In this document: in pieces, positions 6,812-59,700 of the stretch
Layout: every line of letters starts with the position of its first letter
How positions within the stretch are numbered: position 1 is the first letter of the stretch
From: Nemertoderma westbladi
Taxonomy: Eukaryota; Animalia; Xenacoelomorpha
DNA length: 64,000 nt
Direction: 5' to 3'
Assembly (NCBI GenBank): GCA_032718475.1
Contig: JAUCBJ010000785.1
Span: 57,837-121,836 of the forward strand
The notes under the pieces: model-generated
The model's database searches: none
The model's input: only the letters and a program-made list of their open reading frames with translations
Told to the model about the DNA's origin: nothing
Translations under genes and position numbers: made by a program

Positions 6812-8997
6812 AACAACTATGCTTATTCCCCAGAAGTTAGTTATATTCCCAGTTATTTAACCCGCGGGCAGGAAACAACCCGAGGGCGAAGCCCGAGGGT
6901 GTTCCTGCCCAAGGGTTCTGGGAAAATAACTAACTTATGGGGAATAAGTAAGTTGTTACACATTTATTATGGTATGCATTTCGATTATTTTTGTCCCTTA
7001 ACAACTATTTACAGATTCTAAAAGGGCATTGTTTTGGGGAAGAGTTTACAAAATGGGACTTGGAAAGTTTTGGGGGTGTTTATATTGATTTTGCCCAAGG
7101 GAATTGGAAAATTTTCGGTGTGTTTCACTTTAATTCATTAATTGCATAGGTGTTATTTTGCCCAAGGGAATAATAACACCCAAGCTCCAAGGTAAAATAT
7201 TAACTGTGTCATGTGTGTTGTATAGCTCTAGGCTTAATTCATCCAATCGCCGTAAGATTCGATCATCAAAAAAGCACCTGAATTTGTTAGTGAAAATTGA
7301 TGTAAACTTATTTAAATGGTTTACATTCTAAAATTCCTATTTTCTTACATTGGCCGCTAGGAGTAACATTGCATAAACTTCAAATTGGATATATAACTAA
7401 GTTGGCTGAATTAATTGATTAGTATTTTTGGTGGACATGTCATGTATCCACTACCCACAGAAGGGGGGTGTATATCGTTCACATTAAATACATTTATTAG
7501 TATAAATAATTATTTAGTACTTAGGAAAATGTTAATTAATTTAATGGTTCTGGAATATATGAAGTTTATTAAGAATATATATTATATGTATATGAATAAA
7601 TATTAATATATATATATATTACTTACTATTGAGTTTCGGATTTTGCTCAAACTCCTTGGAAAGCTACAAACATTTTCTATTTCGAAGCTCTTTCAACACA
7701 TGTAATAAAGTTTAAGAAATTCCACGAAAAATATTTTCACATTTACATTTTTCGCCGGGAAAAGTAAGTTCAATGCAATCCTAGGCCTACTGTATGATTA
7801 ACTATTATTCCCTAGGGAAAAAAGTAGGAACTTCTTTTTCTCCACATTTTGAGCTATATTTGAGCTAACTAAATAGTAACATTATAAGAATAACATTAAT
7901 ATTCCCATAGTAAAGGGTTGTTATGCCAGTTTTAAAAGAATGATGTCACTTAGAGTCGACCAACAACACCTATCTCCGCTCCACTATATCAAAGTATGGT
8001 CTAGAAAATGTAGTTTTGGCTAAGAACTCCATAAAAGTAAAGTAAAGTTATATTCAAACGTGTAAGAAGAAACACCCGGGCAACAACCCAAAGGCTCCAT
8101 TCTCTTGGCTATTATCTGTAACGCAGGAAAGGCACCACACCACTCCCAAGGTCGAGTACTCTGGTTATCTAACCATATTCTTTACTCCTTAACTCATGAC
8201 AGGTTGCCATTAGCCTACAGTACAACTGGAAGCTAGCAACAATTTGGCTGTTCTGGGGCTTGAACACCAGACCTTCTGCTTAGAAGACCGGTTAATACTT
8301 TTTTTTACTCTACTTTAATATTAAAACGTTTCAATGTCTGTATTAAAAAGGAAAAGGCAGAAAGGGGCGAACGTATTTGAACGACATTCTTAGATATCTT
8401 TTTTTAACATTTAGGAGGAAGGAACTGGAGAAACGCCTCACTGCAGTACGAGGTAGTACGGTACCTTGCAGCCTATATAAATACAGGCCAAACTAGACCT
8501 ACCTGCAGGGCTGCAGGCTGCAGACCTGGTACGGTGAGACTCTGGACTGTGACACTATGTAGGCCTACTGTACCGGTACCTCTTAATTTGTTGTGGAAAT
8601 TGAAAGTTTTGTCATAGGTCAGTTCCGTCAGTATAAGTCGTCATTATGAGTATGACAATGAGGTGATTAATGAGACATAAATAGGCCTTGCTGTCTAGTG
8701 GAGCACAGCCCAATAATAATGAAACATGAAATACAAAACGCCCAATAATAATGAAACATGAAGTACAAAACTAGTTGGTGGTCTGAATACCTGATTTACA
8801 CCTGATGTGACACACAACAGACCTAAGACGAGTACAGCAGCATTACCGGTTCCTATGTTTGTATGTCAGTAGTATGTGGTGTCACGATAAACACTTCACT
8901 ACTAAGAGGGAATAACATGGTTATTTTGCCCTAGGGCAAAATAACTCTTTGCGCCGTCGCCAAGCATTAGGGATAGTTATCATTCCGCTAATAAATG
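6812..8997. mobile_element. Non-autonomous fold-back/HINE-like DNA element, split by the LTR element (other end at 20916-20924)
   Basis: ~145-bp imperfect palindrome at 6812-6957. The 18-bp gttgttacacatttatta (6952-6969) is the exact inverted copy of taataaatg|tgtaacaac, rebuilt across the LTR insertion. Recurring ttattttgccc(t/a)agggca-type palindromic units. Confidence 0.6.
8030..8295 (-). mobile_element. tRNA-derived SINE
   Basis: B-box-like GGTGTTCAAGCCC on the minus strand near 8255-8270; (TTTAC)n-like tail at 8033-8050. Confidence 0.45.
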
Positions 8998-10158
8998 TGT
9001 TCGCGCTTTTAGACTTTTAGCAGTTTAACCCGCTAATTTTAGGTGTCTTCTAATTTATAAATCGACTTTAGCCTACGACAATTTAGTATTACTGAAATAA
9101 CATTAGCCGAAGCCAGTCTATGCGCGACCATTCACCCACTGTTAAGGGAGACTGGATTCGGATGCTTTGACTTATTATTGCGTTGTAGACCTACTGTATT
9201 ACTCGATTGATCGTTACTATATAATCTCTGACAATATATTTACTTTCGGGGAAATATTAACAGTTCCTTTAGGACGTGGCGCTTTAAGTATAAAACAGAG
9301 TTATGACTTATACTAATCACAACTAGATGTCTATTGATTTACATAAAAGGCGCAGTCTTTAGGAGATGCTTTATTACCAGTCACATCACCACAAACAACT
9401 TCACACTGCTTCACACTTATCTGCCGACAGTTACTGAATTTGATCATATATAAGGAAGATAGCAACATGACACCTGTGGGGATTATGAAATAGCATTTAA
9501 TTCACACAAAACCCACTATAATGTAAGTCGCAATTGCTACCAGTAACCTGTCCTCTAACCTTCAGTAATCAATAAGATTGGGGTTTTTTGGGTTCTTTAT
9601 CGGTATTCGTCAAATATAACAATATATCCATCAACAGATATAACCATTAATAACAGACAGTAAAATAATGCAGTAATTGATTTGGTGCCGACGGATTTGT
9701 GCACCGGTGAGTCAGTACCGGTAATAGTTTATGTTTCGATAATCAAAGGCATCTAATGTTCTGGCCAAAGTCTGAAACTTCTACGGAAGTACAGAAGAAT
9801 CCTAAGCCGGTGTTCTGGCTTAGAAAGATAAACACAATTACTACTGACATACACAGACTTGCTCGGTTTACATAGCTCTTTTCCAAGAAAAAATGAAAAT
9901 TGCTCTGATTGGCTGAGCCTAGCTGAGCCGAACAAAGAACCCAGAGCACAAGGGAAAGTTCCACATCAGGAAATCAACTGACAGATTTCGTCATTTGAAC
10001 TACACTGTATTAAGAGTATTTTGACGCATTGCGGCATAAAATGGCTTGTTATGTCCGCTAAGTACACATACAGAAAAACGGCTTTTTATGTCCACTAAAA
10101 ACAACTACAGAGTACTTTGCGGGAAAAATGACTAGCCATAGCCGCAAAAGCTTTTACA
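8998..10158 (-). repeat. 3' LTR of the BEL/Pao element
   Basis: Direct repeat of 19750-20910 with ~22 substitutions by eye (~98% identity); short purine tract GGGAGCGG adjacent on the minus strand. Confidence 0.95.
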
Positions 10159-10236
10159 CCGCTCCCAGAAAATGGGATTTAATTCTATAAAATATAAAAA
10201 ATCACAGTTTCTAAAATATAAAAATACTCTAAACAG

Positions 10237-11209
10237 TTAGTCTTTCTTGCGTGGACGGCGTTTACGCAGTTTTTTTGAGGCTAGCAAGAGTCCTTTTCTC
10301 TTTGGGGCGAGCCACTTTACTAAGAGGGCTATAACTCCTGGGTGAAGGGTGCAATACAATTGCATCAGAAGGTTTAGGGTTACGGTCGGTGTCTCGTCCA
10401 ATTCGATATGCTTCTCCTCGAGCTGATTTTCCTCCGCTTGTCGTTGGATGCGTTCGTCCAAAACTCTCACGGAGAATAGGGTCGTCCAAGTTCGATAACT
10501 TCTTAGAGATTCTGGATTTCCCGATCGAACTGAGATAAAGCTAATTCGTTTACCGCTTGGACTTGCTGCTGCAATTTACGTTTATCTGAACAAACGTAGG
10601 TTCCTTTTCTGATCTTTTTTAGAATAGCGTCTAACGCGTTTCGTACAACGCTCTCCTCCACCTTGGTGACGGGTTGTATCGGGGTTGTTTGAGTTCTATC
10701 ATAGGGTCATGATGTATACCTTGAGGATATCGAGTTTCTAGATTTTGTTGACTGGCAAAATTGAGATATGTTTCTCTCAAGAATTCCAGATATTCGTTGA
10801 AGTTACTGCGTTTATCCGGCTCTTCAACGTCTTCTCATTCGAGTCGTTTTCGAATAGAATTCTCATGTTCGATTCTCGGTTTATCATTCCACCTCCGCTG
10901 GGTATGATATTTAAATAGAACCATTTCCATTTTGGTGTCTATATCGTCCATATCGTGTAAATCGATAGGATGACCAGTTGTTAAGAAGTCTATATACGTA
11001 CCATTACGATGCGTATGGCGAGCGGTGAATTTTCTATAGCCCAATTCACGCGTGAGTTGTTCCTTGGACATTGGCGGTTCGATATAACAACAATCGTCCT
11101 CCGTAGTAGCTGGACTAGCATCGCCGCGTATTAAGCTATCAATAAACGCTTGCAACGGTAGGGTATATCGCTCCCTGATACCAAGATCATCTTCTTTCAA
11201 CTCAGTCAT
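10237..11209 (-). pseudogene. Disrupted extra ORF (~320 codons, charged, unknown function) in the 3' region of the BEL element
   Basis: ORF pieces 10835-11209 and 10237-10470 are joined by coding-like sequence with stops and frameshifts; no hydrophobic TM segment seen. Confidence 0.5.
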
Positions 11210-11858
11210 CGTTGCTATATGAGTTTATCAATATTATAATTAATTATAATTAGGCTAGCAGTCGTTGCTGCCTACCCCTCAATGCCCCCGGACAGCGCAA
11301 GATCCTCAGCGCTGATATACTGTCGCCGCCGTGTCTATCGCCAACGTAGTAGCTACACAACGACAACAATACTCAGCGCGAGTCACTCCACTGTCCGTCC
11401 CAAGGCCCAAGATTTACTTCAGGTTCTTGCTACAGAGGTAGGGCTACTTTCACAACTGCGACTCGCTACTGTAAACACACCTTAGTAGTAACATTCACCT
11501 ATAAAAGCACAAATTCCACGCAACTGTCACAAATTGTACACATTCTGTCACACATTCGGGTCATTTGTTCGTTAGTCAAGTGCCTTCCAGAATGTCACGT
11601 TATCATTATGTATCTCTGGATACTAGCAGTGTGCTATCTATTCCGTATGCTATTCAATGGGCAAGCTTTTATTGTTCTTTTAACTCGCTTCTAATTCTAG
11701 CGTGGCTGTTGCTGTGGTGACATTATGGAAAGCTAGCAGTAGAATTAGGGTAATTCTCATGCATACAGATCTGGGATGCTATTTAATAGTAATTCTTTAA
11801 TTGTCAATATTCCCCTTTATATATGATTTTATGAATTTTATCGGCTATTGACTATATT

Positions 11859-13065: not shown

Positions 13066-14388
13066 TTACGTTATGGAGTCCCTAGATATTTGTTGGATTA
13101 GGGAGGTGGTCGTGGGAAGAGTATCTTGCCTTCCATAGTTTCTGGACAGTTCTCGGTCTCTTTCCAGTAAACATAGACGACCAACTGGGCGATTGAGTTG
13201 TTGTGTTTCGAATACAATTCCAGGTTTCTTCTTCGTCCTGAAATAGTTGGGTTTAGGTTTAGGATTAGGTTTAACTTTCTCCGCTCCCTTGGCTTGTCTA
13301 ATCTCAGCCGTGGTAAGATGAGGAGGCCATTCATCTTCTTCTTTACTTAGGAAGTCGGGTCCACCTAACCAGTCCGGAGTCTCTATCAGTTCTTGAAAAG
13401 TTGCTCCTCTGGAGTCGATATCGTCATTATCTGAGGAGTATGGTGTTCCCTCAGGTGTATTGTCTCCCTCACTGATTTCCTCTTCCCATTCACTCACCTG
13501 GTAAATTTGCTCCTTTGGTAGCCTTTCCATGAGTGTCCTACGGGAGGGACCAGTAAAGTACCAACCTACTCTAGTTCTTCCCGCATAAGTTTGTAGTGGT
13601 TGCGGTTGAGTAGGCCGTTTCTCTAATGTCTCCAGCGCCTCATGCGCATTTTGGCCGATGAGTATTTGTACCCCAGGGTAGTCTGTGTTGAATCTAGGTA
13701 TGTCATACTGTTGGGTGAAATCGTCTTCATCCCAGTTATAAGGTTCCACTTGGCTGGTAGCGAAGTTCTTTATAGCCACCATTTTTACTGACCTTATACT
13801 GTGTTCTCCTAGTTCGTCCTGGGGGGTGGACAAAGCGCCTACATAGTAGTCCGTGTGACAATCCCCATAGTATACTGTACGTTAATTGAAGAACTACATT
13901 GTGTAATATGTAATGTATATTGGTTGGTTAAGGCAAACAGCTGGTTATATACATTTTGAGTTAGTGCCTTAATATTGGTGAAGTATATTAGTATTATGAT
14001 GAGTATTAGTATTAGGAGTGTATAAGAATTATTGATATATGTTACTTAGTTTTTGATTATAGACATTTTTTGGATTGTAGAAAATTACCGAACCAGTGTT
14101 TTATATACTTGAACTGCCACAGTCCGTAGCTACTGTAGATTTCCAAACCTGCATAATTCCTGAAAGGTTCAACTTAGTTCGGAACTTAGGTTGTCCAGCA
14201 AAGATATCTTCGGCTAGTTCTTTATCGATGAATGTTCCTGTGCTGCCAGAGTCGAGAAGGGCGTTCACTATATAAATCTTGCATACGCCGTGGACTCTCA
14301 ACTGCACTACGGGAAATTCTCGGATTCCTACGTTGGAAGTTGGCATTTTCCAAGATGGTTGTCGGTCTGGAATAGTGAGGGGAAGCAC
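13066..14388 (-). pseudogene. BEL/Pao protease fused to remnants of pol; RT, RNase H core and integrase core absent
   Basis: NALLDSGSTGTFI, ILIGQN...TRVGWYFTGP (BEL protease), then WLGGPDFL...EWP and RPVGRLCLLE in one frame once the 268-bp insertion is removed. Confidence 0.85.
13854..14121. mobile_element. 268-bp solo LTR nested in the protease
   Basis: TGTGACA...TGCCACA termini and 5-bp TSD GTCCG (13849-13853, 14122-14126); removal restores the frame STVATDYYVGALSTPQ. Confidence 0.85.
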
Positions 14389-17300
14389 TTACCTGACTCG
14401 GGCTGTTTCTTTCGAATTCGGTGTGCAACAAAATATGATGTTTCGCGCCGCACTTCGCACACCTTGCGTCGGAGTAACAGGTTCGCTGTTGGTGTCCTTG
14501 TCTGAGACATTTATAACACAACCGCTTATCCCACATGACTTCGCGTCTATCTTTTAGGGATTTATTTAAGAACTCCTCACACACACTTAAACGATGGGGC
14601 CCGTCGCACAACATACATTTTGGTTTGATGTTACTTACTTTACCTTGGGTAATGTTATGCACACTCGTTCTTTCCTCTGGCTTTCTTCCATGAATTCTTT
14701 TAGGAGACGTGGGAGGAGTTTTTGTTGTATATTCTCTCCTGTCACTGGTTCGAGACTTTAATTTACTTACGTCTTTTGGTGCTTTGTTGACATAGTAAGA
14801 TCTTTCAGTGTCTCTCCCATTGCTCTCCTCTTGAGAGGTTTGGCTTTCGCCATCGTCTGTATAACACACTGGTGTTACCTTTCTCCTAGAAACGGGTTTT
14901 TCACTTACCTCACTTTCAGGAGTCTTCTCTCTAGACTGTTTTAGGAGTTGTAATCTTACCTCTCGGTTTAAGAATGACAGAAGGTCCATCATGGTTGGAT
15001 CTCTATGTTGTTGGTCCATCAAATAGAGAACCTTTTTGTCCCAGCGAGTACATACTTCACCCTTTGGAAAAGCTGATGCTAAGGCTCCTACAACCATAGA
15101 ATTCTGGTATTCATGAGACTTACCCAACCAGTCTAATTGTCTACAGATCTCCTGAATCTCATCGGAAAACTCTATAATCCCGCTGCTAAGAAACTTTCGG
15201 GGCGCCATTAATTTCGCATACAAATACCTAGCTATGTTAGTCCTATTACCATACCTGATGTTTAGTGTATCCCAAACTTGTCTTAATCCATATGGATGTC
15301 CAATAAACTTTAACGCCATTAACTTGGGAGGTCCTTCCAAGCACTCGATGAGGAATCTAAGTTTCTCTCCGTTAGCTAGTACAGAGTTCTGTATGTTATC
15401 CTTATAATATTCATTAAAAGGTAACCATTTCATCTCATCTCCATTGAACTTGACTATATCTCCCATCTTTACCGCTTGACGGGCTTCGGTTCTAGCCATT
15501 TGACGCGTAAAACTTTCTTGGGCCATCGTATTATTTAATATCGAGTATCGGTATATAAATTTCTCAGATTATGATCAGGTCTATATGGAATATCATTGTC
15601 AACAGGTTTTTACCCTTAATTACCCTTAATAGGGTTTACTATAGGAGTTTCTACTTCACTAGCAGTATAGATGCGTGTAGTCTCCACACCTTGCGCATGA
15701 AATACTTCAGACCTAACAGGTTGACACATTGTTACAGGAGGTGGTGGTATACCCTTTTGTATATTTACCAATTTATCACGTTCTAACGCGATACTCTGCT
15801 GCACTTCTTGCAACTCTAACCTACTTTCTCTTACTGTTCCCTTCAACTGCTGAACAGTCCCTTCAATCTCTCGGACTTGCTGTGAGGAACATACCTGGTG
15901 TTCCCTCAGCTTCCCGAGCAAGAGACCCATCTCCCGCCGTCCCTCAGCTACCCACTTGACCGCCGAAGCGGGAGTCGCCAACATAGTAGCAGACGAGCGA
16001 GAGACGACGGGCGATAAATTCTTGATATCTCGCTCGGCGTCCAGGACGGGTTTGGACTCGGGAACAGTCCTACTGGGCACAGGTAGTTTAGTACTGTGCA
16101 AAGGGAATTTAGAGGTAGGTTCTGGAAGTACAGGTGTCTCTATCACCGAAGGGGTGTCTTCGAGAACAGGCCTAATTATTTCAGGCTCATCTACTATAGT
16201 AGGGAGACTTTCTATTCTAATAATTTGGTCTGTGGGTTCTGTACTACCTAAGTCTGTGCTAGATAGTTGCCTTCTCACAGCTGGTAGATCTATTTCCTCC
16301 ACCTTCAGGATCTGTGGTGTCGCCTTCATCGGATGATGTAAATCCTTGTCTTTTGGGAGTTTTTTTACTTATCATCTGCCACTGACACGCTGTTCTCTGT
16401 TTATCGATGTAATCTTGCTTCTCTTGAAGATTTTCCAACTCTAGTTGGGCGGTCTCTTCAGACGCCTTTCGTTCTGCTTCTGCCACTGCTACCTTTATTT
16501 CTGCTTCTGCCGTTTTTCTTTCCGCTTCTGCCTCTGCCACTGCCACTGCTGCTGCTGCTTTTCTTTCCGCTTCTGCCTCTGCCGCTGCTGCTTTTCTTTC
16601 TACTTCCGCCGCTTTTCTTTCCGCTTCTGCCTCTGCCACTGCCGCTGCTGCTGTCTTTCTGTCATCTATACGTTTTTTCTTTACGTGTTCTTCTTGAACC
16701 CTAGCGATGCGGATGCTTTCATCAAATTTAGCTTGGTTCGCAGCTAACATTTCCGCATCTAATGCGTCCAACACCAACTTGGCTCCTTCACTATTAGGGC
16801 GAAGTCCATCTAACCGTCTCCTTAACTCTTCGTCACCTATAAATCGTTGATAGTCCGACAGATAGATGTCAATTGCGTCCCTCTGAGGTTTTTCTGCCGT
16901 CACTTCGCTTTCCACTTGAGAAAAGACAGCGTCGGTTGATTCTCCTTGAGTCGAGCGCTCAGCCAGCTGAAATTTCCACTGGGCCGTTCCTTGAACTTTG
17001 AGATCTACGCGCTGGAACCAAGTCTTCACAGCAACTTGCAACGACGTATCTTGGATTCTCTTCGAGGCCTCCTCAAAGGCTGAAAGAATTAGTCTGATCC
17101 GCAGAACTCATTCGCGAACTTGATAAAGCAGCTCTCCCTGCTCTTGAGGTCCTTGGGGTTGTTGAAACAGTTGTTCCTCTGATCGCTCCAGAGAGCTGAA
17201 GAATCTCTGCACATATCCTGCTGCCGACCTCTTCCACACAGCTGGATCTCTAGTGTCCATTAACACTCCCATCCGGTATAGATCTTTCCAGGCAGCTTCT

Positions 17301-17851
17301 GATAAGTTAAACGGGAGTCCGGATCCGGGGAAATTCCATTGCATCTCGACAATAGATGTCAGTTCCTCCTTCGTGTATCCCGCATAACTGTCCTTGGTCG
17401 ATCGCTGACCTCTCGCCCAATCCATTTGATGTTCCTCTACCGCAATCAATACTCTAGTGTGTACGGCTTCCGGGAGAATGAGAAGTGGATCCGAATAAAC
17501 CGCTTCTGCCATCTTTGCTCCGCGCTCGGGTGTCAGCTCTACAGTATCTGAACTACTGGAGCTATCGGGCCGCTGAGAAATAAGTTCTCGGCTCGAGTGT
17601 TTAACAGCTGCCTCTTGGTCCCGCTTGACTTGAGCCCGAGTGCCTATAATAGACCTATGGTGCTTTACTAGCCTAGGGTCTGATACTACTACTGGAGGGA
17701 TGACCTTTCTGACAGTAGGAGGGGACTTGGACTTTGGTCTAGGATGTTCTATACTTTGATCTTGGTCACAGATCTTTTTAAGACTCTGTCTAACAGTCAT
17801 TCTAACACTTTCTATGAGACTATCTGACAGTGTTTGTTGTGTGTCAGACAT
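14222..17851 (-). pseudogene. gag: BEL/Pao gag with long N-terminal coiled-coil/Pro-rich extension; disrupted
   Basis: ORFs 17108-17851, 16259-17041, 15616-16329 and 14222-15526. Capsid-like KFNGDEMKWLPF...EKLRFLIECLEGPP; knuckles CMLCDGPHRLSVC, CYKCLRQGHQQRTC and CAKCGAKHHILLH. Confidence 0.9.
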
Positions 17852-19749
17852 GTTTGATTATACAGTTGAATGCCTACTACTATAATGACAGTTAAAGTAA
17901 GTCTAGTAATTCAGTATCAACTAAAAGCCTAGTAATTAATTACCGATATTGTTACTCAGTGTAACGTGATATATATACAATATATTAAAATACCGGTATA
18001 CACTTATAGTATAAGTATTATTACAGACTAGGGTTTGTCACAAAAATACCGGTATATAATTCAGCGTAAATATATAAATATATAATAAGCCTTCCGTGAA
18101 TACCGGTATACAGTTTACACTTATAGTATATATAAGTATAATTATAGACTAAATTAATTACAGAATACCGGTATATGATTTCAGCATAAGTTTATAAAAA
18201 TAAATATAATAAGCCTATCGTAAATACCGGTATATCAATTATTTTAGAATAATTGAATTTCTGAAATTTAGGGTTACTTGGTTAGTTTACGTTACTTTAT
18301 AACCGTTATTTAAGCAGTGGTCCAACTGATATTAAGACCTAATTGATGGATGACAGGCCTACTATTTATAAATCGGTTTGAGTTGATTTATAATATATAT
18401 ACCCGTACAAGGGTTTTTTGCCAATATTTGAAACAAATGTTATTGTTTCTGGTTAAGGGTTCACTACACAGAAGCTAAACGCTCTCAGTGGAGTGCTACC
18501 TGTTGGACACTAAAACAAATAATTATACTTGACTAAGTTACTTATTACTACAAATTACTTACAATTATAGGGTGGGATTACAATCTCTAAATAAACAATA
18601 ACAAATTACACGTACAAATTTTAGGGTAATTTTACAGGGAATCTACAAACCAGTCTAACAAGGGTTAGAAGTCTAGTTATTACAAACGGACAGGATACTA
18701 CGGTATTTGAAAATAATTAAGCAGTAGTAAATACACTGTGTTGTCCAGATAAGAAATTACCACCGTCTGACAACTTATAGCCTTTTGCTTTACAGCACTA
18801 TAAGTACTACGTTATGTACCCGGAGTGTCCTTACCTAGAAGTTAATTACCGCAGCCTACCAGAGCTAACGTGCCTATTAACCACTTTACAACACAAATAT
18901 ACTGCCCACAAACTAATTACTTTCGGAAAGTATTGTACACTAAACCCTAGATTAGGTACAATTACTTGTATAACAAATAACCAGCAGTTAAATATACTTG
19001 AACAGCTAAAAGAACCACGGCATCTGCTGGAGTGACTAGCGCATAAAATCGCCGGTCTTTACCTACGCTGAGCAGCCCTGATGTAGTACCGGGGTTAATT
19101 TAACTATAACGGTATGTATAACAAGCACAATTACTGTAGGAATAAACTGGGGGAGTTTGAAGGTTGCGAATACTTGCATAAACTCTGAATAATAAATATT
19201 ACGCTACCCGTACAGACTACACAAACAAAATACAGTCCAAACGCTGGCAGACTACTGTCAAGCCTAAATAAACTACAGTATATGCAGACTCCGAAATGGT
19301 TAGTTAGTATGCGTTCTAACCGAGTAGTACGACTTATTCTTTCGGGGGGGATTTACATTACAACTCAAGATGCCCCTACTTTCCTAACTAGTACTTTATC
19401 GGACATACACTCTACACACACTGCAATCTCTTCAAACTTAACAACAGCTAGACAACAATCCAGCCTACAAATTATCTATACAATCTGAGCAGGTTTACAC
19501 GACCTCTGCTCAACATTACACTTACAGATAAATAAAACTGACAGAAATAAGTAAACCATACAAAGGAGTAAGGGGTGATCAATCCCTAATCCCCTAACAG
19601 CCTACAATATACAATATTTCACAATCGAACTAATACTGGTACCCGCAAGTACCGGTTCGGGTGATTGGGCAATTAGGCCTACAGGTTACCGTCTGACCGG
19701 TACATTCGAATTTATTGTCTACGTGCAATAAAGAAGTATAAACTATTAC

Positions 19750-20910
19750 TGTTCGCGCTTTTAGACTTTTAGCAGTTTAACCCGCTAATTTTAGGTGTCT
19801 TCTAATTTATAAATCGACTTTAGCCTATGACAATTTATTATTACTGAAATAACATTAGCCGAAGCCAGTCTATGCACGACCATTCACCCACTGTTAAGGG
19901 AGACTGGATTCGGATGCTTTGACTTATTATTGCATTGTAGACCTACTGTATTACTCAATTGATCGTTACTATATAATCTCTGACAATATATTTACTTTTG
20001 GGGAAATATTAACAGTTCCTTTAGGACGTGGCGGTTTAAGTATAAAACAGAGTTATGACTTATACTAATCACAACTAGATGTCTATTGATTTACATAAAA
20101 GGCGCATTCTTTAGGAGATGCTTTATTACCAGTCACATCACCGCAAACAACTTCACACTGCTTCACACTGATCTGCCGACAGTTACTGAATTTGATCATA
20201 TATAAGGAAGATAGCAACATGACACCTGTAGGGATTATGAAATAGCATTTAATTCACACAAAACCCACTATAATGTAAGTCGCAATTGCTACCGGTAACC
20301 TGTCCTCTAACCTTCAGTAATCAATAAGATTGGGGTTTTTTGGGTTCTTTATCGGTATTCTTCAAATATAACAATATATCCATCAACAGATATAACCATT
20401 AATAACAGACAGTAAAATAATGCAGTAATTGATTTGGTGCCGACGGATTTGTGCACCGGTGAGTCAGTACCGGTAATAGTTTATGTTTCGATAATCAAAG
20501 GCATCTAATGTTCTGGCCAAAGTCTGAAACTTCTACAGAAGTACAGAAGAATCCTAAGCCGGTGTTCTGGCTTAGAAAGATAAACACAACTACTACTGAC
20601 ATACACAGACTTGCTCGGTTTGCATAGCTCTTTTCCAAGAAAAAATGAAAATCGCTCTGATTGGCTGAGCCTAGCTGAGCCAAACAAAGAACCCAGAACA
20701 CAAGGGAAAGTTCCACATCAGCAAATCAGCTGACAGATTTCGTCATTTGAACTACACTGTATTAAGAGTATTTTGACGCATTGCGGCATAAAATGGCTTG
20801 TTATGTCCGCTAAGTACACATACAGAAAAACGGCTTTTTATGTCCACTAAAAACAACAACAGAGTACTTTGCGGGAAAAATGACTAGCCATAGCCGCAAA
20901 AGCTTTTACA
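19750..20910 (-). repeat. 5' LTR of the BEL/Pao element
   Basis: Direct repeat of 8998-10158; on the minus strand a CCAAT box (~20660), a TATA-like motif (~20620) and a TCAGT initiator-like motif (~20597). Confidence 0.95.
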
Positions 20911-21315
20911 AAATGTGTAACAACCTGTGTTATAAATACATTACTTAAATACTATTTCATCACTAATAGGTGAAACCCCATCGAATTAGTGTCACTTAGA
21001 TTAATGTCGTAGATTAATTAACTCGTAATACAATAACAGTAAATCAACTTTTTACATAGAGATTTACATAGAGCAATCAGTGAGAGACTATTTATTCTGT
21101 ACTTTGAACTTCTGTATCTTTAATTATTTATATTAAATCTGAACTTAATTAATGTGATTATGTGTACGAACTTCATTATTGTATAAAGAACTTATCAAAA
21201 ACAAACAAATTATTCAACAAATAAAATGTAAATATTTATTAAATATCGCTAATGCGCTATCAAATTTGCATTTATTCTCACAAAAGTCTTTGAAATACAA
21301 GTAGGTTGAAACCAC

Positions 21316-21505: not shown

Positions 21506-24500
21506 GTGAGTTAATATTATTAACAAATAATAAGAAATATTAAGTAATATTATGTGAGGGTCTAAGATGTGACTTATTATTAGAATTATTATATATATTA
21601 TTATTAAATTATTACAGCCCTATTATTAGTACCGTGCTATAAAATGTTGTAAAAAAATCCCCCCCCCCCCCCCCCCCCTAAAATCTATAAACTTTAACGA
21701 AAACGTCTGATTTTTTGTCGAAAAAAAAATATATCGAAAGAATGAAATGGGGTGGTTACTTTGCAGCACCAAAAGTTAAGTTGCCAGATCACTGCAACTC
21801 GTATTTTTCGGCGTAATATGTCAAATTTTGGTGCTAGCACCAAATTTCGTACCCAACACCAAAAAGTATAAGTTTGAAATGTCCAGTGCTGTTTTTTATT
21901 GATTTCATCGGATTTAGGACCCTCATAAATGTATAACTCAAGAAACAAGATGTTACTACCTATTGATCAATAAATAAAAAATAAAAAAAATAATAAATCG
22001 TGTAAATCATGTGCAATTAAAAAATATGTTATTACAAATCATATTTCTTGTAATGTAATTTTCAAAAACATCTCAAAATAAGTACCAAATGTAGGGCTAT
22101 AACTCGAAAACTTTCCAATATTTTTAAAAACCGTTTTGACTATTAGGAAGACAATAGCTTTTTAGGAAAAGTCAGAGTTTCAGAGTTATAACAAAAAACC
22201 ACAGGGGGGAGGGGGTGGGGGTCATATTGACCCCCCCCCCCGTGTTTAATAGGGTTAACGATGACTCTCCAGATATAACCGAGAGTCTCCCTAATGATCT
22301 ATAGATTTTGATACATTATGTCAACCAATCAGCCACCAGCTGATATTCTCGGTCTACGGAAAGCTGCAAAGTAATCACTAACTTTAGTAGCAATAAAACT
22401 CTAGAACACGTCTTGAGCATTCTCCATTGATGATAGCCATTGTGCTGTGGCCATAGTTTAATGTGTAAAATTATTTACCGTTCATTTGTTAGAGTAACTA
22501 CTGTACAGTTAATTTCATAAAAAGGATATGTATTTAATCAATATTCCTAAATATTACAATATTAATTTTAATAATTAAGCAATCAGAACGCCGATAAGAT
22601 GAATTGAGTTGAGCCGAGTCTGTATTTATGTTATGTGGGAGAGCAGAGAGGTACAGCGAGGGAGAATCAGTGATGGGGTTTAAATAAATAAATATACAAG
22701 GGTGATATACGCTGAATATAATTTATCCAGCAAGCTAATTTGATCCCAAATGGTATTCTATCATTAATTAATGGATATATATTTATGTAATTTGTAATTA
22801 AACCAGATTGATTGATCGCTTGCTATTTTTTTCCAGATTACCAATATAAAACAATTTAAATATTAAACACTAAAACAAGGAACTGGTAAATAATATATTA
22901 TAGTGTATGGTGTACGTGTAGTTACTACTGTATTTAATTCATTAAGTAATAGATAGGGCCTACTGATCAAACTGAAAGTAAATAAAAAGTAACTGAAAAT
23001 AGTGTAGCTGTGTAGTGAACGGCTATGATTTAGGGCTTGTCTAATCAGCACGATTTATGATTACCTAATTAAAAGTTTAAAAATAGTCTTAATGTGCTGT
23101 ACCAATTGCAACCGTTAAAATGGAGGGATAGCCTTATGCGGTGAACCGCGTTTCCATAAGGTTCCCAGTGAAATTCAAAATACAGAGGGCGATGAATATT
23201 ATTTAAAATACAAACAGAACGGATTGGTGAACGATTAAAATACAGGTGGAATGAGGCGGAGGGACTGACATATTTAAAAAATTTAGAAATGGGCGTTGAT
23301 AGTGACGATCTAAAACATGATTAAAATTCAAGTAGGTTATGGTTGTGGCGGTGAGAAGTTTAAGTGGTGGTGGGATTGATTAACTAAAAAATGATTAAAA
23401 TACAAAATGGGGGGCTGAGGCTGATGAACTTAAAAATAATTAAAAAGATAGGTAGACTGACAAATTTTAAAATTACCAAAATACAATTACATTTCGGGCG
23501 GTGAATATAAAAATACTCAAAATCCAAACATGGCTAATAATGGAGGTAGAATATGTGGATGAGGCTGATAAAAATAATTAAAACACACAACACAATTTGA
23601 AGCTGTGAGTTTAATTGAATTTGGCACGTTAACTGAAATGCAAATAAAATGTAGTTGATTGGATTAAAATCAAGCGAAAAGTTTGTAGAAAGGTATTTAA
23701 AAAAAAAAGTTATATTTATTGATTAGTGAATGGAGATTCGGTTTCATTAGTTATTTTTTCGAGGTAATACTTCTTAACTTCATGTTTAAAAACAATTATT
23801 GAACTGGAATTGGTTATGGTGGTGGGGAGATTATTCCACAGCTTGGGGCCGAGGAAACTGAATGAGATCTGGCCGTAAACCGTGTGTCTATGTGGAACGG
23901 ATGCCAGTTCACATGTTGATTGAAGGGAGTAGTTGGCTTCCTGGAAGTCGATGAGGTCCACTAGGTACTGGGGTGCTTGGCTGTGTTTGATTTTGTACAC
24001 CCACGCGAGAATTACGGCCTCTAGACGTTGTTTGAGAGGAAGCCAGTTTATCTCCACGAAATCCGAAGCATCGATGTGCGCTCTCGGCCCGAGGCCCATT
24101 GCAGAAGTGAACGCACTTCCACTGGAGGGCCTCGAGCTGATTCCGCAGTCTTGCCGAGATCGTGAAGAACCACGTGGAGGCCGCGTAGTCGAGGTGGGGT
24201 TGGATGAGAGTGTTACACAGCATTCTGCGGAGGGATCTATCGAGAACTGACCCGTTTCGGTGTAGGAATTTCAATCGGGAGTTGCCTCGCTTAATAATCT
24301 TCCTCGCCATTTCCTCGCCGTTTAGACTCTGGTTCAGTTCGGTCCCCAGGTAGATAACGGATTTGCGATTTGGAATTTTCTTACCATAGCAGTATACCTT
24401 TAAGTCGGGAGCAGTTGCACGTCTCTGGTGTTTACCAAACAGGATGCATTCGGTTTTATCATTGTTTTAATCTTTAGTTTGTTTTCCGTACACCATTGAA

Positions 24501-27500
24501 AGACTCTATCCATTGTGTTTGTTAGTGAATGGGATATCTTCACCAAACATTCGTCACTGTGTGCTAATCCGGAATCGTCAGCAAATACTGGAGCTAATGT
24601 GTCATCTTCGACGGTCTGGGGGAAGTCGTTTGTATCACTAATGTAGAGCAATACTCCAAGGATCGAACCTTGGGGAACTCCGTCGTCGTGAGTCCAGTGT
24701 ACGTACAGTCCGGTGGACTGTACATCTCCAATGGCCACATATTGCTCTCGGTTAGATAAATACGATGTGAACCATTCGCAAGTACTTGTAGCAGCTCCCA
24801 TCGCCTCAGTTTATTTATAACTGTGCGGTGATCCACACCATCAAAAGCTTTGCGCAGGTCTATTAGCACCATCCCGGTTAGCTTTCCAGAGTCGATGGAC
24901 ACCTTGATGTAGTTATCTAGTATCATAAGTGCCGATTATGTTGAAAAACCATGTCTATAACTGGACTGCAACTTGTTTAAAAGATTGTTAGAGACCAGGT
25001 AGCCCATCCATTGGTCGAATACGACTCATTCAAGGATTTTCGATAAAATTGGTAGTAAAGCAATGGGCCGAAAGTTTCCGCGAGCTATGTGAGATCGCTT
25101 TTCCTTGTAGATTGTGTTAAGGCGTGCTATTTTGTAGCCCTGTGGAAATGTTGAAGTTTGTATCGATAGATTCACAATATGTGCAACAGGTTTCACTAAA
25201 AATTCAATTCCATCTGTAATTACTCTAGCTGGAATCAGATCGGGTCCAGTCGCTTTCTTGCTGTCTATTTTATGGAATATTTTATCCACTATGCTTAATG
25301 TCACTGGTTTCAGTTCGAACAAGTCCTTCTCTACCCCTTGTCTGGAGTAGTATTCCTTGGTTACATCATTATTATATCGCCCACTAGCTGGTGTTAGTTG
25401 GGAGACCAGATCCTTGGCTATATTTGAACAGTAGTTGTTGAATTCTTCACATATAGTTTGTGTGTCTCGGCAGATTTTTCCATCAATGAGTAGACCACTG
25501 ATCGGGTTGCGTGCGCTTCCCTGTTTCTTTGTTGGCAGACCAATGGCTTTTAATGCCTTCCATAGTTTTTCACTGTCACCAGTAGCTGCCTGTAGGTATG
25601 ATTTTATATGTGAAACCTTTAGTTTACGTTAAGTTAACGTTTAGCAAGCTGGAATGTTTCAGTTCGTCAAGTAGGAGTTCACTCGTGTATTTGCTGAAAA
25701 CCCGGCATTTCATAGTCTTTGGTAATCCTGGCATTCTTTTCTGCCTTTTCCGAGTCGCGAAGACCTTGTAATGGTCACTAACTCTCTCTTTGATTACTCC
25801 GTGGTTGCTAATCATGCCTTCATTTGTAACAAAGACATGGTCTATAATAGTGGCTGTTTTTCGCTGTTCCATTATAACCCGTTTCAACCCATGATTGTTT
25901 GTGAAGTGTAGCAGCTTCTTCAGTTCAATATTGATCCCAGGTATAGATAGAGGGTATTTTTTGAGTGACCTTGAATTTATATCCACAACTGGTGTCATGT
26001 CGATATATGTGTCTCTCATTATGATAACTTCATTATAAGCTGAGATGTCAATACATGTTCTATGTTCTCAAACAGAGATAGGTCAGCATCATGTCTATAT
26101 ACTACTCCAGTTAGCAGCGGTTTTGTATCTGGTAGTAATAGTTCTCCGAATAAAATTTCAGACTGTGTTGCTTTTGAATATTCCAGCTCAATATAATGTA
26201 ACCTTTTGTGGACATACAAGACGATTCCACCACCACTACGTCCAGTTCTGTCTCGCCTAAACGAATTATAGTTTGATATATTAATGTTAACATTACTAAT
26301 GGTGTCATCGAGCCAAGATTCCGTTATTGCTAGTAAATCGATTATGCATGAATTCATTATAATTCGCAACTCGTCAATTTTGTTCTTTAAGTGACAGATA
26401 TTAACATACACAAAATGTATTCCCTTTGAATTGAAACTTGTGAGCCAGTCATAGGGATTATTGGTTGGTATATCTAAACTTTTGAATTCCTTGTTAGTAG
26501 TTTTATTGCTTACAGTGTGGTGTGATGTTGAGGTTAGTCAATCCAACCAGTCGGCTTCGGTTGTTGGTTTTTTGTGACGTTGCTGTCTGCGAAGCTGTCT
26601 CTCCTTAAACGCAATTTCCTGGTCATAAGGAGACAGATCTCGATCGAAATAAAAGCGCCTTGGATCATCATTGGGCGCAATAATGGTATTGAACGACTTT
26701 TCGGATACGATGCTAGCTGTAGCTTCTATAGATTGAAATATCAATCGTATTGGACATGGTTTACCGTCCTCTCGTCTGTTGCCAAGGTGGGAAATACCAC
26801 AGAATTCTAAGGTCCTCTCTAGGGCAGCGTTTAGGAATTGTGTATCGCTCCGTCGTTGCAATTCCGCAGAAGCTTCCACATCGCCTGGGATGCCACGGAT
26901 GATCACATTTCGTTTACGTTGCTCTTTTGAAGCAATGACCTTCTCAATACTCTCTGCGGTTGGTTGGGGTGGTTGTTCTGCCAATTTCTTCTGTAAATCG
27001 GTGATCTGGTTGGTGTTTTTCTGAACAATATCAGCCCATGAACCGTTGCTTGCATTTGGGTATGTGGTAACTGTGTTACAGGCATCTAGGTGCTGAGAGT
27101 GGGTTGCGATAATTTCGTCAACGTCAGCTTTTAGTGAATTCATGTCCAAGGATAGGATGTTTGTTTCTATGGAAGTTGAATCAGCAACAAGCTTTATTTC
27201 GGATTGCAAAGAATCTGTTTCGCTTGATCCTGCTTTGCTACTTAGCTCTTCATGTATATTTGCAAGTAGACCCTCCAGGTTCTTTATTTTACCTGCAGAG
27301 CGAAAACCGCAGAGGAATGGGGAAGTTGAGAGGAGAGTAGTTTTCTTTTTTCGAACCTCAATCTCGGTCCAAGTTTGCATGAAATCTGAGCACTCGACCT
27401 TGATTGTCTCCCATGTGGCTTGTTTTTGTTTAGTTCCATTCGTGTTGAGGTTCGAACGACGGTGGCTACTGTTACCGTTGTTATTACTCATATTGAACAA

Positions 27501-30500
27501 TGTCCGGTTATCAATCCAGGCCAGTAATACCTCATATAATTAAATAATTAAAATATATACCGGTACGGTACAACAGTATAGTACAGCAAAGTCAGACAGT
27601 AGTTGTACAGTTGGTGTTTTGGTATCCCAGTATCGTATTTAGTAGAGGTATAGGTTCGCCACTAGTAGTAGTTCAAATATGAAATAAGTACAAACCATAT
27701 AAATGGTTAATAAACCGTGTGCAGTAATATATGATAATAATAGATAATAATGATAATAGAAAGTGTTATTAAAGACTAAATGTAATAAGATGATGCCTGT
27801 GGGTAAGTATTTTTTATTTCACATCTCACATTTCACTTATTACATAAATGCAGGTGGATTACACGTCGTGCTTTCCCGAAATCTTCTCGAGGCCCGGCGG
27901 GTTAAACCAATTATATATAATCACAATGCTAGCAAAACTACAGAGAATTGTACAGATCCAACGATCGCAGACTTTCCGGATGATTTCTTTACCCAGAAGG
28001 AGCGGAAACAAGGAGGAGTTATCATTCATTGTTTAATCACCATGTACTTGTTCCTTGGATTTGCTATTGTCTGTGACGATTATTTTGTACCAACATTGGA
28101 GGTGATATGTGAAAGTTAGTGAGTCAGTCAGTCAGTTAGTTTGTTAATTAGGTAGATAGTATTATAAATATTATAAACAATAATACTGCTGTTTTCAGTT
28201 ATTATTTTTTACCAAACTCCTTGGGTGTGCAATCCCAGTGATCCTGGGAATGTTTATCTTTTAGGTTTGCATTTGGAACCAGATGTTGCTGGGGCAACCT
28301 TTATGGCAGCTGGGAGCTCTGCACCAGAACTATTCACGTCTATATTTGGTTAGTTATCTTTGAATTTTTATTTTCATTTGAATGTTGTTTAAAACCTTGA
28401 TATGTAGTGACAATCATTGATGAAATTAACTTGTGCTAAGTAACTTGTATGACATTTATTTATTACAAAATTTCAGCTTATCAGAGAGTTACATTAATAC
28501 CAAGAATCCTTAGATTTACCAGTACAGTGTGATGTATTATTTTATCGTTCAATAGGTTCTCATTTTAATTGCATTTGGTGTAGTAAACTAAACTAAAACT
28601 AAGGTCGTTCAATATAATAAAGACATGATTGTGTCCTGAACTACAGTAATTATTTGAGTGTTCATGCTAATAAATTCTGTACATATAATATAATATCAAT
28701 ATAATATATATGATGCATCTTTACCTAGATTTCGTAATATTACACGTTCTTCATCTAAATTACTAGTTTGTTTGTTCCATATTATATAATCTATGTACAG
28801 TTATGCTATATTACTTTGTAACGAAACTGCAGTATAAAGTATCATTATGTAACTAAAAGTAGAATGTAATTTTAAAAGATCCACTTGTAAATAAGCTTTC
28901 GAGCTTTAGAGGCTATCCTCTATAGATTATATTTTATACTTAGATATTGTGCACTTATTTCTTCTATACGGGTTTTTGTACGAAATAGGGACTTATGTTG
29001 ATTTGTGAATGTGAATGTGAATTTTTATATATATTCCTTTGTATAATTCTATAAATAAATAATAATAATAATTGTACTTTAGGGGTAAGAATGGCCTGTA
29101 ATAATAGATACTATAATTTATACTGAATCTAATGCAACCTATTTGGTCGTCTTGTCTGCAACCTTTTCCCAGAATATGGTGCATTTACAACCAACTGTTT
29201 ATACTCAAATTTGGTTGTCATGCCGTGTTCCAGAATATGCGGAATTTATTATATAGAATAAAATAGCCTCGTATAACGAATGCATATCAAATCAAATCGG
29301 ATCACGACCCTGTCGTCTGCTTATTAGACCTACGATCTGTGAAGAGCCCACAAACACAGCGCGAATATGATTCACATACGATGGTATATTACAGTTTTTG
29401 CAAAATCGACGTACTGAAAGCAACTCAAGTTTGCGCCGCACATCCATTTGTGTTAGAATATCCTATAGTAGATAATGTGGTGGATTATGACTTGATTATT
29501 GAAAAGTGGTACAAATGGATATATAAAGTAATTGACAGTTGTGTACCAAAACGGACCATCCACAGGGCATCTCAACCACCATGGATTTCACAAAAAACAT
29601 CCCACAAATTAAAACAGCTACATACAGTACAACGGAAAAACTCTAAATATAAATCACCTGCACTTACATTACAGATGAAATTTGATCAACTCCAAAAAGA
29701 CATTGAAAGTGACATTATAGAAGATCAAGCGCAGTATGAGACACGCCTTTCAAACTCGAGATCGATGAAACACTTATTTAAATACTTTAAAAGTCTCCGC
29801 AGATCATCACAACTACCACCAGTTTTGCATTAAAGAAATCACATTGCCTCCACGGACATTGAACAAGCTGAGCTTTTTAATGAATTTTTCCAATCTGTCT
29901 TTAAAACACCTCGACTACCTACTAGCAAGGTCTCCCCTCCAATTGATATTGTTGATCCCCCTAACTTCACAACGTCCAGCAACTATGATGTTTCCGGTAG
30001 AGACCGTGGAGAATATTCTGTCCGCTCTTGATGTTACTAAATCCCGAGGACCAGATAATATTTCGCCTGGGTTTCTTAAATCGTTAGGGAAAGTCCTTGC
30101 ACCTTCTTTGTCTACAATATTTAAAATACTGAAAAAAGTCAACTATTTTCCGATTTTGTGTAAACATGCATTAGTAAGTCCCCAACATAAAAATGGGAGT
30201 AAAATTAAAATAATTTTGTACCGTCCGATTTCACTTCTCGCAATCCCAGGGAAAGTATTCGAACGGTGTATATTCATTGCGGTATATGAACAGGTGAGGG
30301 AGCGACTACACAACGCCCAACATGGCTTTAGAAAATGTAGATCAACAATTACACAACTTCTTATTTTTTGGATAATGTATACAAAGGTATGGATGATGGA
30401 CAGTTGGCGGTGGAGACAGTTTACTTGGATTTTCAAAAAGCATTTGACTCAGTTAGCCACGAATCCCTACTTAAAAAGTTGTGGAGAATAGGAGTACGAG

Positions 30501-49857: not shown

Positions 49858-50412
49858 CTAAAACAAAATCTTCATTTCAACATGATAAGCCGAATTGGTG
49901 ACTGTAAACTTATACCAATATATTACTCCTCTCCAATCATTTGCACCATATTCGCCATTTAAGTTGCTATGTGAGCAACCTTTGAACCACCAGCCTCCTC
50001 CTCCCCCGTAATATGTTGAGCAGTTTATCGTTTCATAGGAATCATTATCGTTGTCCTTGGTAGAGAATGGCTGACCGTTGTTATATTCCAATGAGTCACC
50101 AGCAGTACCATGGTAACCGGAAACATGTAAGCGATAATTAGTTGCAGCTGATCCGATAGAGAAGTTGTCGTATTCCGCGTATTTGTGTTCGTTGTTGTAA
50201 TACCTTTTTTCATAATTGCTATTAACATTGGGATAAGCATATCCCTCTCCAGTGAACCACAAATCGACCCTCAACTTCACCCCGCCGTAACTCAGATTGT
50301 GGATCTTCTCCAACCCCAACCAAAAATTGGTATTCGGGTTTCCAAATCCTTCAACATATTCTAGCCAACTGCGATTGAAGTGGACGGTATCATCAATTCT
50401 TTGCTGTATCAT
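49858..50412 (-). CDS. Fibrinogen-related domain (FReD; ficolin/angiopoietin/tenascin-like) terminal exon
   Basis: tttcag acceptor, then IQQRIDDTVHFNRSWLEYVEGFG...FWLGLEKIH...FSTKDNDND...GGWWFKGCSHSNLNG...EMKI and a stop; open frame. Confidence 0.92.
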   Translation of the reverse strand: MIQQRIDDTVHFNRSWLEYVEGFGNPNTNFWLGLEKIHNLSYGGVKLRVDLWFTGEGYAYPNVNSNYEKRYYNNEHKYAEYDNFSIGSAATNYRLHVSGYHGTAGDSLEYNNGQPFSTKDNDNDSYETINCSTYYGGGGGWWFKGCSHSNLNGEYGANDWRGVIYWYKFTVTNSAYHVEMKILF

Positions 50413-56725: not shown

Positions 56726-59700
56726 TAATTGCCTACTACTCCTTATTTATGACTGCAATGCGGTATTTTGCCGGAAGCTTGAAGATGGCTTAACAAAATG
56801 CCCTGTTATTCAATAATCATAAAACAACTGCCTTCTATATCAAGATTGGATGCTCTTTTATGTCAAATTATCCATTTAAGTCTGAAAATTTACAGAAATT
56901 GAATGCAAACAACAATCTTCATCATATTTATCAATCAATACAAATACAAATAAAATTCATATTTCGTATTAATATAGCTCCTTCCCCGTACCTGGTTCGC
57001 TTACTGTTACTAAATTGAACTGTAAGTCAAAAACTACTCAGAATTTTTGAAAACGGTTTTCATCCCCTATAGAATTATATCCTCACAAAAGCCGTGAAAT
57101 TTCAAAATTTTATTTAGTTGGAATTAATTTGCATTATTTGATAGGTTCATATGTTATAAGATTACATTAAGTTCTCATTTGCATTTGGTATAGCTATTTG
57201 TACAACATTATTCAAGTGGTTCAGTAGCTCAGTTGGTTATGCGTTAGAAATTCGTTTGATAGGTATCGAGTTCAAATCCTAGCAGGTGTAAATTGTTTTT
57301 TGTGCCAATTTTCAACTTATTTGAATTGACCGCTATGATTGAATTGTATCTGCTCAAGGTAGATTAACCAATGTAATTGCAGTTATCTGACAGTAACCAA
57401 TGTCGTGCAAGTTATGTGTTTGTTGGACCAATGGTTATCTTTAAAAATGTAATGGAACCTATAGAATGATCTAGATTTGTCTAGATTATTGGCAGCACTA
57501 ATTTACTATATAAAGGTGCGTTCGTGCAATTAGTTATCTCATCTTCTTGATTCATTTACATCTACTAAATGTATTTCACTTCTTAGATTATTCACTACTT
57601 CGTCATAATTTGTATTTTATTTCGTAATTTTTGTTCGTTATTTGTAATAAAGTTAGAATTATTGTTACATCTGTTTTAACATGATTCACCACGGTGAACC
57701 CAACTGAGGGACAGATGGCAGGCTAAGCAGCGGGCCGCAGCAATGAACGGGAACATCGGCGGAATGTAGAAAGGAGACCACCCACAATATTGATTTATAG
57801 TTCTTCGCCCATCGCCTGAAAGGTTAGACAGCGTTTGATGCCTTGCTACATAAGTGTAAGACCTGAGATCAAAGGTAGACGTAGTGACACGCTGTGCGCC
57901 AAAATTTAAATTTAGGAACTGTACTGTTTTGATTCTGGCAGAACCCGAGGTATTCCTTCACATTCCTATGGGGGGAGATAGAAGAGAGAGAGAGAATAGA
58001 TACAGGTACACAGATAAGGACGCAGGCACACCATTACGGGGCATGCACATTGGTAGGATACATCAGAACTGTACGCCTAACTTATTTGCCGTGTATAGGT
58101 GCGCTTGTGGCTTATTTTGTAGTACAACGGTGTCCATTGCTTGTATTGGAGTCTGTAGGCCAAGAGAAAGTTACCGTGTCTTGTCTGAATCAAGATTGTA
58201 CCGTTCAGGCGGTTGGGCAGTTTATTGTGCTAGGCGCATTACAAATAGGGCTATTTGGGATACTAACACCTACCGTGTCCCCGCCGACATCCTGATAAGA
58301 AGTTGCCACGCCCACCTAGGCTACCAAAATTCTAGATAGGAGACCAGGCTAGCTATTGTAACTGTATGCCTACTGTAGTAAACTAACACATTTCTTTTTA
58401 GTATTAGGGACCTGGTAGATTTAAATTGCCGAATTCTGGCCGTAGTTACTAACCTTATGCCTGAATTTGAGTCCTGGAAATACACAAAGGGGGAAGGAGC
58501 CTTATCATCTGTGAGTATTAGACCTACAGACCACAAAATTTGAATATTTGTAAAATGCATACCGGACCCAGTAAATTATATAATATGAAGGAGTACAAAA
58601 CAAAAATTTGATTGTAAAATTCAACACACACGAGTTTAGGAATTATTTACACCTCGAAATATATAAAATAATTTTGTCCAAGCCGCAGTTCGTCCGCTAG
58701 TTAGATATTTAGCTAGCAACCCCCACCCCATATAAATCACACCGCGGCAAAGTATACGAACGCCTTTAGTCCGTCAGCAAGTCAGCATGATTGTTAGGAT
58801 TCGCTGCGCGGGATTTTGTATCATCGAAGTTTGTCCATTTGTAGACTGTTTTCTGCCTCACCGGTAAACGACACCGATACTGCAATAGATTCGCTTACTT
58901 AGAGTTTACTGTTTTGGTGAGAAGGTTGGATTTATGCTTTATGATTCACAGACTTTACAGTAGGATATTGCAGGATTCACATATAGTAGAGATGTGATTT
59001 CGGAATCTACAAGCAGTAGTAATAGGTTTGTAGATCTGGTCGATCAAACAGTAGGAATGTGATTATATTTTAACATATTCCAGAATGTGGTTATTTTAAC
59101 ATATTTCCTAAAACAGTAGGAATGTGTTATTTTAACACAGAATGTGTTTTACTGAACTATAGTTCAGTAGGACTAAAATTATTTTAGAAATTTTGTATTT
59201 TGAGGTAAAATTTGTATTTGATTAGCTAAGTGCAAATTTTTGAATAAAATTCATATTTTGAACCGTGTGTAAATATTTTGGAATTAAAATACCGGTGTTT
59301 AAAAGGGTTTAAATACCATATTGTACCGGTATAAAAATTTTTCGTAAAGTAAAACCAAACTCTTTTGTTTTTCAGGACTCAGAGCTCATTTCTAGACTGT
59401 AACGAGAGCAAGACCGTGTTTAGCAAGTTTGGGAGATTGATAACTCAACAATTTTGGTTGGGGAAAATCGCACTTCGTCCACAACGCTGCAAACGGAAAG
59501 GTTCACGTCCGGTTTGTATCTGGGAATCTGTTTTTCTGGAGAATTTTGGAGGTGGTAAGTTCGAAAAGTTGCATTAATCAGTTAGGCATTGCCGTATTAG
59601 TTAAAATTATTCTGGGTTCCACTGTCTCAAGTATTTGCATTCTGTACGATTTCTTTGTTTATTGCTGAATTAGTCCGTGTTATTTGTGTTTGATTTACAA

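Follow-up and report, generated by a model that had tools for sequence, protein, structure and literature searches.

In Tf1, Tf2, Tj1 and the Tf1/sushi group (Ty3/gypsy chromoviruses) no tRNA site is present and a segment of the LTR serves as primer, according to the available text of the sources (10.1101/2022.12.06.519325, PMC4600332, PMC5341516). In Tf1 the primer is freed by RNase H, as stated in the accessible part of PMC5341516 and in the title of Levin 1996 cited in PMC4600332. The sections of PMC6317226 that were available attribute self-priming to Tf1/sushi, Tcn1 and TAR Copia elements; for the plant TAR-lineage Copia elements (Houba, Osr-1) and the Tcn1 clade it was predicted from complementarity between LTR and primer site alone. 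In fungal GalEa Copia elements the tRNA site is replaced by a Conserved Hairpin Site (available text of PMC5445492).

The ICTV profile of the Belpaoviridae describes priming by a host tRNA, tRNA-Arg or tRNA-Gly, at an 18-nt site, and calls BEL/Pao replication poorly understood (PMC8742986). No report of self-priming in BEL/Pao elements was found in the accessible literature, subscription papers, Repbase Reports and supplements lying outside the scope of the search. A term search of the available text of four BEL/Pao surveys (PMC554778, PMC3118150, PMC6238403, PMC8556966) returned no discussion of the primer site, and the accessible parts of PMC3601003, PMC8220671, PMC5445492, PMC5443660 and PMC2864245 held no report of BEL/Pao self-priming. 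Self-priming has so far been described for other retrotransposon groups only. It has also been claimed that Cer7 of C. elegans encodes its own primer, which our literature search did not confirm.

We analyzed a stretch of 64,000 nucleotides of Nemertoderma westbladi DNA, referred to here as the window, which carries an element of the BEL/Pao lineage on its minus strand (Table 1). The features described below suggest, with a probability that we put at about 0.68, that this element primes minus-strand DNA with 12 nt of its own LTR RNA and not with a host tRNA.

Table 1. Positions of the features of the window element and of a second BEL/Pao element in the window
Feature	Position	Strand	Remarks
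Whole BEL/Pao-type element	20910 to 8998	minus	
5' LTR, TG...CA	19750..20910	minus	1161 nt
3' LTR	8998..10158	minus	98.1% identity with the 5' LTR
Target-site duplication CATTT, upstream copy	20911..20915	minus	5 bp
Target-site duplication CATTT, downstream copy	8993..8997	minus	
Predicted promoter	20595..20664	minus	CCAAT 20664, TATA-like 20626, initiator-like TCAGT 20599; predicted start ~20597
Predicted 125-nt leader domain	20473..20597	minus	closing stem: RNA 5' end with primer segment
Candidate self-primer ATAAACTATTAC	20473..20484	minus	fully complementary to the 12-mer in one uninterrupted piece; requires no intron
Candidate primer copy in the 3' LTR	9721..9732	minus	
AATAAA, predicted poly(A) signal	20122..20127	minus	in both LTRs
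Primer-binding position, 12-mer GTAATAGTTTAT	19738..19749	minus	abuts the 5' LTR; not TGG-initial
N-terminal gag-region frames	15616..17857	minus	disrupted by stop codons and changes of frame; without Pfam match
gag: DUF1759 domain and three Cys/His knuckle motifs	14222..15568	minus	E 6e-13
Aspartyl protease remnant (LLDSGS)	14101..14388	minus	different frame; E 0.0013, below the Pfam cut-off
Frame with short Pol remnant	13066..13881	minus	alignment falls immediately past Peptidase_A17 in BEL/Pao Pol
Candidate PPT	10159..10166	minus	short purine-rich tract preceding the 3' LTR
Second BEL/Pao element	59933-64000, leader 57958-59140	plus	cut by the window end; DUF1759 E 2e-12
Second element, candidate primer-binding position	59051..59062	plus	after ACA; ~900 nt before the gag ATG; candidate LTR end
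Second element, candidate primer	57958..57969	plus	11 Watson-Crick pairs and a terminal G-U with 59051-59062

Class of the element and its junction

The window element derives from the BEL/Pao lineage but is non-autonomous and not a complete member of it. TG...CA LTRs and a short target duplication, both BEL/Pao criteria, are present. The two LTRs align without gaps and are separated by 22 substitutions over 1161 positions (15 transitions and 7 transversions, K2P 0.019), and at 98.1% identity they mark the element as a young, recent insertion. The BEL/Pao identity given in the initial annotation was borne out by the DUF1759 gag with its knuckles, the LTRs and the duplication, but a complete Pol is absent and only remnants are present. 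The Pol remnant aligned to the profile with a probability of 78% over 38 columns. In profile searches of its frames, RT and integrase were absent and RNase H was not intact, losses on which the initial annotation is silent; since the window copy has no RT, it needs that of a helper element. A word-index protein search with the element gave only two weak matches. Among relatives scanned on the BEL/Pao gag criterion, DUF1759 was found in 18 of 18 and Peptidase_A17 also in 14. Two further minus-strand frames ahead of the 3' LTR (10237-11224; 129 and 112 aa) had no Pfam match, and the one that was compared with the BEL/Pao Pol profile showed no likeness to it.

The remainder of the window holds decayed LINE fragments at 23716-27539 (minus strand), 29267-30491 and 33031-34429 (both plus strand) and 37584-40529, the last including a LINE pair (37588-40529) that forms an inverted repeat of ~1 kb with 78% identity. 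From their translations, we take 44704-45066 (minus strand) to be an exon resembling the C-terminus of a K+-dependent Na+/Ca2+ exchanger and 49858-50418 (minus strand) to be an exon resembling a fibrinogen-related domain. The frames of the window outside the element point to an animal host.

The initial annotation had reported a 12-mer in the place of the usual primer-binding site, with an exact complement inside the LTRs and a duplex that stops at the LTR boundary, and all three statements were confirmed. The 12-mer follows the 5' LTR with zero gap, and no TGG occurs within 150 nt past the LTR end, so that the 18-nt site for a host tRNA 3' end is absent. All 12 bases are matched in both LTRs, and the match is exactly 12 nt long with no extension on either side. 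No tRNA gene was found in the 64-kb window, and Rfam gave no match in 17800-21000.

Matches of this kind are rare in the window. A complement of at least 12 nt within the preceding 1161 nt was found at 70 of 62,660 minus-strand positions (0.0011), and 11 of the 7,861 junctions preceded by CA, the window junction included, had such a self-complement. When the LTR was shuffled with its dinucleotides kept, the complement of the 12-mer arose in 4 of 20,000 shuffles. Only three of the 72 ACA/GTA sites in the window have a self-match of at least 10 nt: the junction of the element itself and a tandem pair ahead of the second BEL gag. A primer built by splicing was also considered for the window element and rejected, as no donor/acceptor split reached a match of at least 11 nt; the near miss combined the four bases before the primer with the bases past an acceptor-like position at 19843 (9 of 10 in the 3' LTR) and had no GT donor. 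The 15-base junction pattern matched 118 loci in metagenome contigs, none of which resembled the window element, and no relatives of it were found in viral contigs.

The second BEL element may represent another self-priming family. Its ACA/GTAG site at 59050, with a tandem duplicate at 59115, has a complement 1,093 nt upstream. This pair is unrelated to that of the first element and has a chance probability of ~2% over seven candidate sites; the site also lies in a strong local hairpin (z -5.6). On the same strand, an LTR-like stretch at 56719-57680 has TG...CA ends, TATATAAA at 57507 and AATAAA at 57646, with no target duplication visible by eye, and contains a tRNA-like insert at ~57215-57290.

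Other copies, control elements and relatives

Copies of the element were sought in four DNA runs, which represent at most three samples and of which X1 and X2 may derive from the source sample. Contigs matching the LTR numbered thousands across the runs; the family is high-copy in the host. Of the 32 contig pieces listed, eight reach across the end of the LTR and through the full 12-mer with an identity of at least 80%, and each of the four runs contributes to them; one is identical and the remainder carry 3-10 differences somewhere along the piece. The initial annotation had reasoned that sister copies with a TGG site would speak against self-priming, and these pieces from the four runs instead share the same non-TGG junction. 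From this it follows that the missing TGG is no deletion private to the window copy. Among the matches listed, the loose-end groups at the LTR end included none leading toward a TGG site, their flanks being mixed.

In a second junction type, the LTR end and the first four bases of the site (19746-19749) are kept and the sequence then diverges; this type is not TGG-initial and was seen in 11 contigs of X1 and 2 contigs of X3. One contig of X5 has an altered primer segment, and a matching change of the site was absent among the matches listed. In a divergent contig (X2, X3), 20 of 21 substitutions lie just 3' of the primer, with 6 gaps not placed. Contig depth is minimal just 3' of the primer and just 3' of the site, and depth cannot rank the parts of the element.

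As controls, 21 BEL/Pao LTR pairs with a TGG site were collected from the loci with a readable pair (19 of 36 and 2 of 8); the other 17 and 6 loci, together with L158, L159 and L160, had no readable LTR pair and were left out. L161 was rejected as a BEL/Pao relative, since it is a gypsy element. In all 21 controls, which are not independent samples and include six that are near-identical, TGG lies at most 7 nt from the LTR end and the best contiguous self-match is at most 6 nt. The best split match among 17 of the TGG controls was 9. A search for stray host BEL elements covered approximately 1,850 prokaryote assemblies, and two of its screens yielded new ones. Several GTDB assemblies labelled bacterial (e.g. 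Rubritalea, Nitrospirales, Ekhidna and Wolbachia; L119-L148, L162-L163) carry eukaryotic BEL/Pao elements with LTRs, which points to contamination with host DNA.

Three intact-looking BEL/Pao elements in stray host DNA of a single genome (G173), L155, L156 and L157, have a Peptidase_A17 Pol and no TGG. Their primer sites lie 1-2 nt from the LTR, the LTR boundary of L157 being deduced because its 3' LTR is cut at the contig end, and each pairs over 11 nt with its own LTR across a predicted splice junction, 3 nt coming from the end of predicted exon 1 and 8 nt from exon 2. The splice signals are canonical GT donors and pyrimidine-rich AG acceptors, and they delimit a predicted LTR intron in L155:1001-1900, L156:1001-1808 and L157 (338-1022 nt). 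Exon 1 extends over ~190 nt from the assumed start. In the split-match null, 2 of 7,849 control junctions reached 11. The absence of complementarity in related families, named in the initial annotation as a result that would count against its proposal, was not what these three relatives showed.

Alignment of L155 with L156 showed that two of the three exon-1 bases differ and that the primer sites carry matching changes. The covariation that the initial annotation proposed to test was seen as compensatory changes between these two relatives; within the window family no linked change appeared among the matches listed.

The Pol remnant of the window element gave its best score against L156. In a quick gag tree, the window element and L155-L157 fell on one side and all seven TGG rows apart (SH-aLRT 99). 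The window element is on a long branch (2.84) in this tree, and no starred set of at most half of the rows includes it. Lineage placement comes from such quick gag trees, the window copy having no RT from which to build an RT phylogeny.

These results, namely the shared junction, the TGG controls without a match and the compensatory 11-nt pairing of the relatives, indirectly support the self-priming proposed in the initial annotation, and the complementarity between 12-mer and LTR is real and probably functional.

Leader folding, proposed mechanism and alternatives

The CCAAT, TATA-like and TCAGT sequences, which we take to be promoter motifs, were found in both LTRs, in agreement with the promoter geometry used in the initial annotation, and the start at ~20597 stays a prediction. 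The spacing of these motifs equals that in another promoter-like stretch of the window (55186-55257). The predicted start is ~113 nt upstream of the primer segment. The initial annotation had seen this distance from the cap as a caveat, which stands insofar as the primer would be internal. The primers of the relatives, on an assumed start, look internal as well, so the distance probably characterizes the lineage rather than weakening the interpretation.

The predicted leader (20597-20473) gave folding z scores of -2.97 and -2.83 in the two LTRs, its ends having been picked post hoc, and 2 of 200 shuffles folded as well. At equilibrium the probability of the primer:site helix was ~0, forcing it cost ~5-9 kcal/mol, and the RNA 5' end competed for the primer segment. 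When nine hypothetical introns lying downstream of the primer were removed one at a time, the helix probability never exceeded 0.023. Because the covarying relatives score near 0 as well (at most 0.006), the folding test does not discriminate. As for flanking helices like those of Tf1, pairing of the U5 end was matched by 71% of random windows, and helices of 9 and 10 bp with the region 33-52 nt past the site were equalled by 7% of random windows.

We propose that transcription would start near 20597 and that folding of the first 125 nt would keep the primer segment paired to the RNA 5' end. Inside the particle, where Gag and the RT of an intact helper would be present, the segment could move to the primer-binding site, either on its own RNA or on one packaged with it. 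A cut after C20473, by analogy with Tf1 most likely made by the RNase H of the helper, would free a 3'-OH that would be extended onto the terminal ACA of U5, and the length of primer copied back would be limited by a second cut or by a stop once 11-12 nt had been copied. The relatives would reach the same 11-nt duplex by splicing out an LTR intron, the window family carrying its primer ready-made.

The simplest variant would be the mechanism of Tf1 itself, in which the packaged RNA begins at or just before 20484 and its capped 5' end is the primer. A single cut would then suffice and the 12-nt length would be explained, and alternative start sites are used by Tf2 (available text of PMC5341516). 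This variant is nevertheless improbable: the motifs in both LTRs indicate a start at ~20597, no TATA-like motif lies 25-35 nt upstream of 20484, and the primers of the relatives, on an assumed start, look internal as well. It is also unlikely, though slightly less so, that the pairing is structural (a switch, a dimer or a packaging contact) and that a host RNA matching the 12-mer, such as a half-tRNA or small RNA, does the priming. Half-tRNA primers exist in Copia groups (available text of PMC6317226) and folding predictions place the primer segment in the leader stem, where it is already paired. However, the site varies among the window element, L155, L156, L157 and the second element, each matching its own LTR, which speaks against a host primer because such a primer would not track these changes; the second junction type in the same host has only its first four bases in common with the window junction.

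There is little to recommend a primer processed from the 3' end of the element RNA by a cut at or near the poly(A) site. The segment is present in the 3' LTR too, and AATAAA follows the primer directly in L155 and L156 and after 7 nt in L157, but in the window element the AATAAA of both LTRs lies ~350 nt downstream of the primer, and we regard this origin as very unlikely. Equally slight is the likelihood that the match arose by chance or is a relic of an inverted duplication without function, in a copy whose normal tRNA site was lost. In its favor are the A+T-richness of the window, where such a match occurs at about 1 in 1,000 positions, and the defective state of the element; against it, the match falls exactly at the single position where one is expected, contigs of four runs show the junction again, the relatives L155 and L156 covary, and no TGG appeared among the loose-end groups listed at the LTR end, a weak test given the mixed flanks. 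This last explanation is largely refuted.

Self-priming from the LTR is therefore the reading that we retain for the window element. A wider proposal, which we put forward tentatively and consider possible rather than probable, is that a branch of BEL/Pao has swapped the host tRNA for a self-made primer internal to the leader, some members by splicing and the window family as the 3' end of a folded, capped leader of 125 nt. The leader piece would be unwound onto the primer site like the acceptor stem of a tRNA and would be a self-encoded tRNA substitute, a third tRNA-free route.

Comparison with known systems

If the self-primed BEL/Pao branch is confirmed, tRNA-free priming would have arisen independently in a third LTR superfamily, and retrotransposon copying would be coupled to host splicing through the splice-built primers of the relatives. 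Such a branch would also account for the failure of annotation tools that seek tRNA sites to find these elements or to label them correctly. The Tf1 model, in which the cap end sets the primer length, does not accommodate an internal primer, which would need a new way of defining its 5' limit.

The window element resembles the Belpaoviridae in its DUF1759 gag with knuckles, its Pol remnant, its LTRs (up to 1.2 kb in the profile) and its 5-bp duplication, but differs from the profile in having no tRNA site, no RT and no integrase. Like GalEa, it has no tRNA site although other members of its group are normally primed by tRNA; the GalEa replacement is a local hairpin without an LTR complement, whereas the site of the window element matches its own LTR. 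The TAR Copia and Tcn1 elements are similar in that their self-priming was likewise predicted from LTR complementarity, although they are plant Copia and gypsy elements and not BEL/Pao.

In arrangement the window element resembles Tf1/sushi, where an LTR segment is also perfectly complementary to a site just after the 5' LTR. Unlike those elements, the window element has a BEL/Pao-type gag and Pol remnant and not the Pol of a Ty3/gypsy chromovirus, its primer is predicted to lie inside the transcript and not at the 5' end, and its relatives are predicted to build their primers by splicing; the flanking helices of the three-duplex 'pretzel' of Tf1/sushi are not clearly present in it. As read here, the window element works like Tf1 but belongs outside the Tf1/sushi group.
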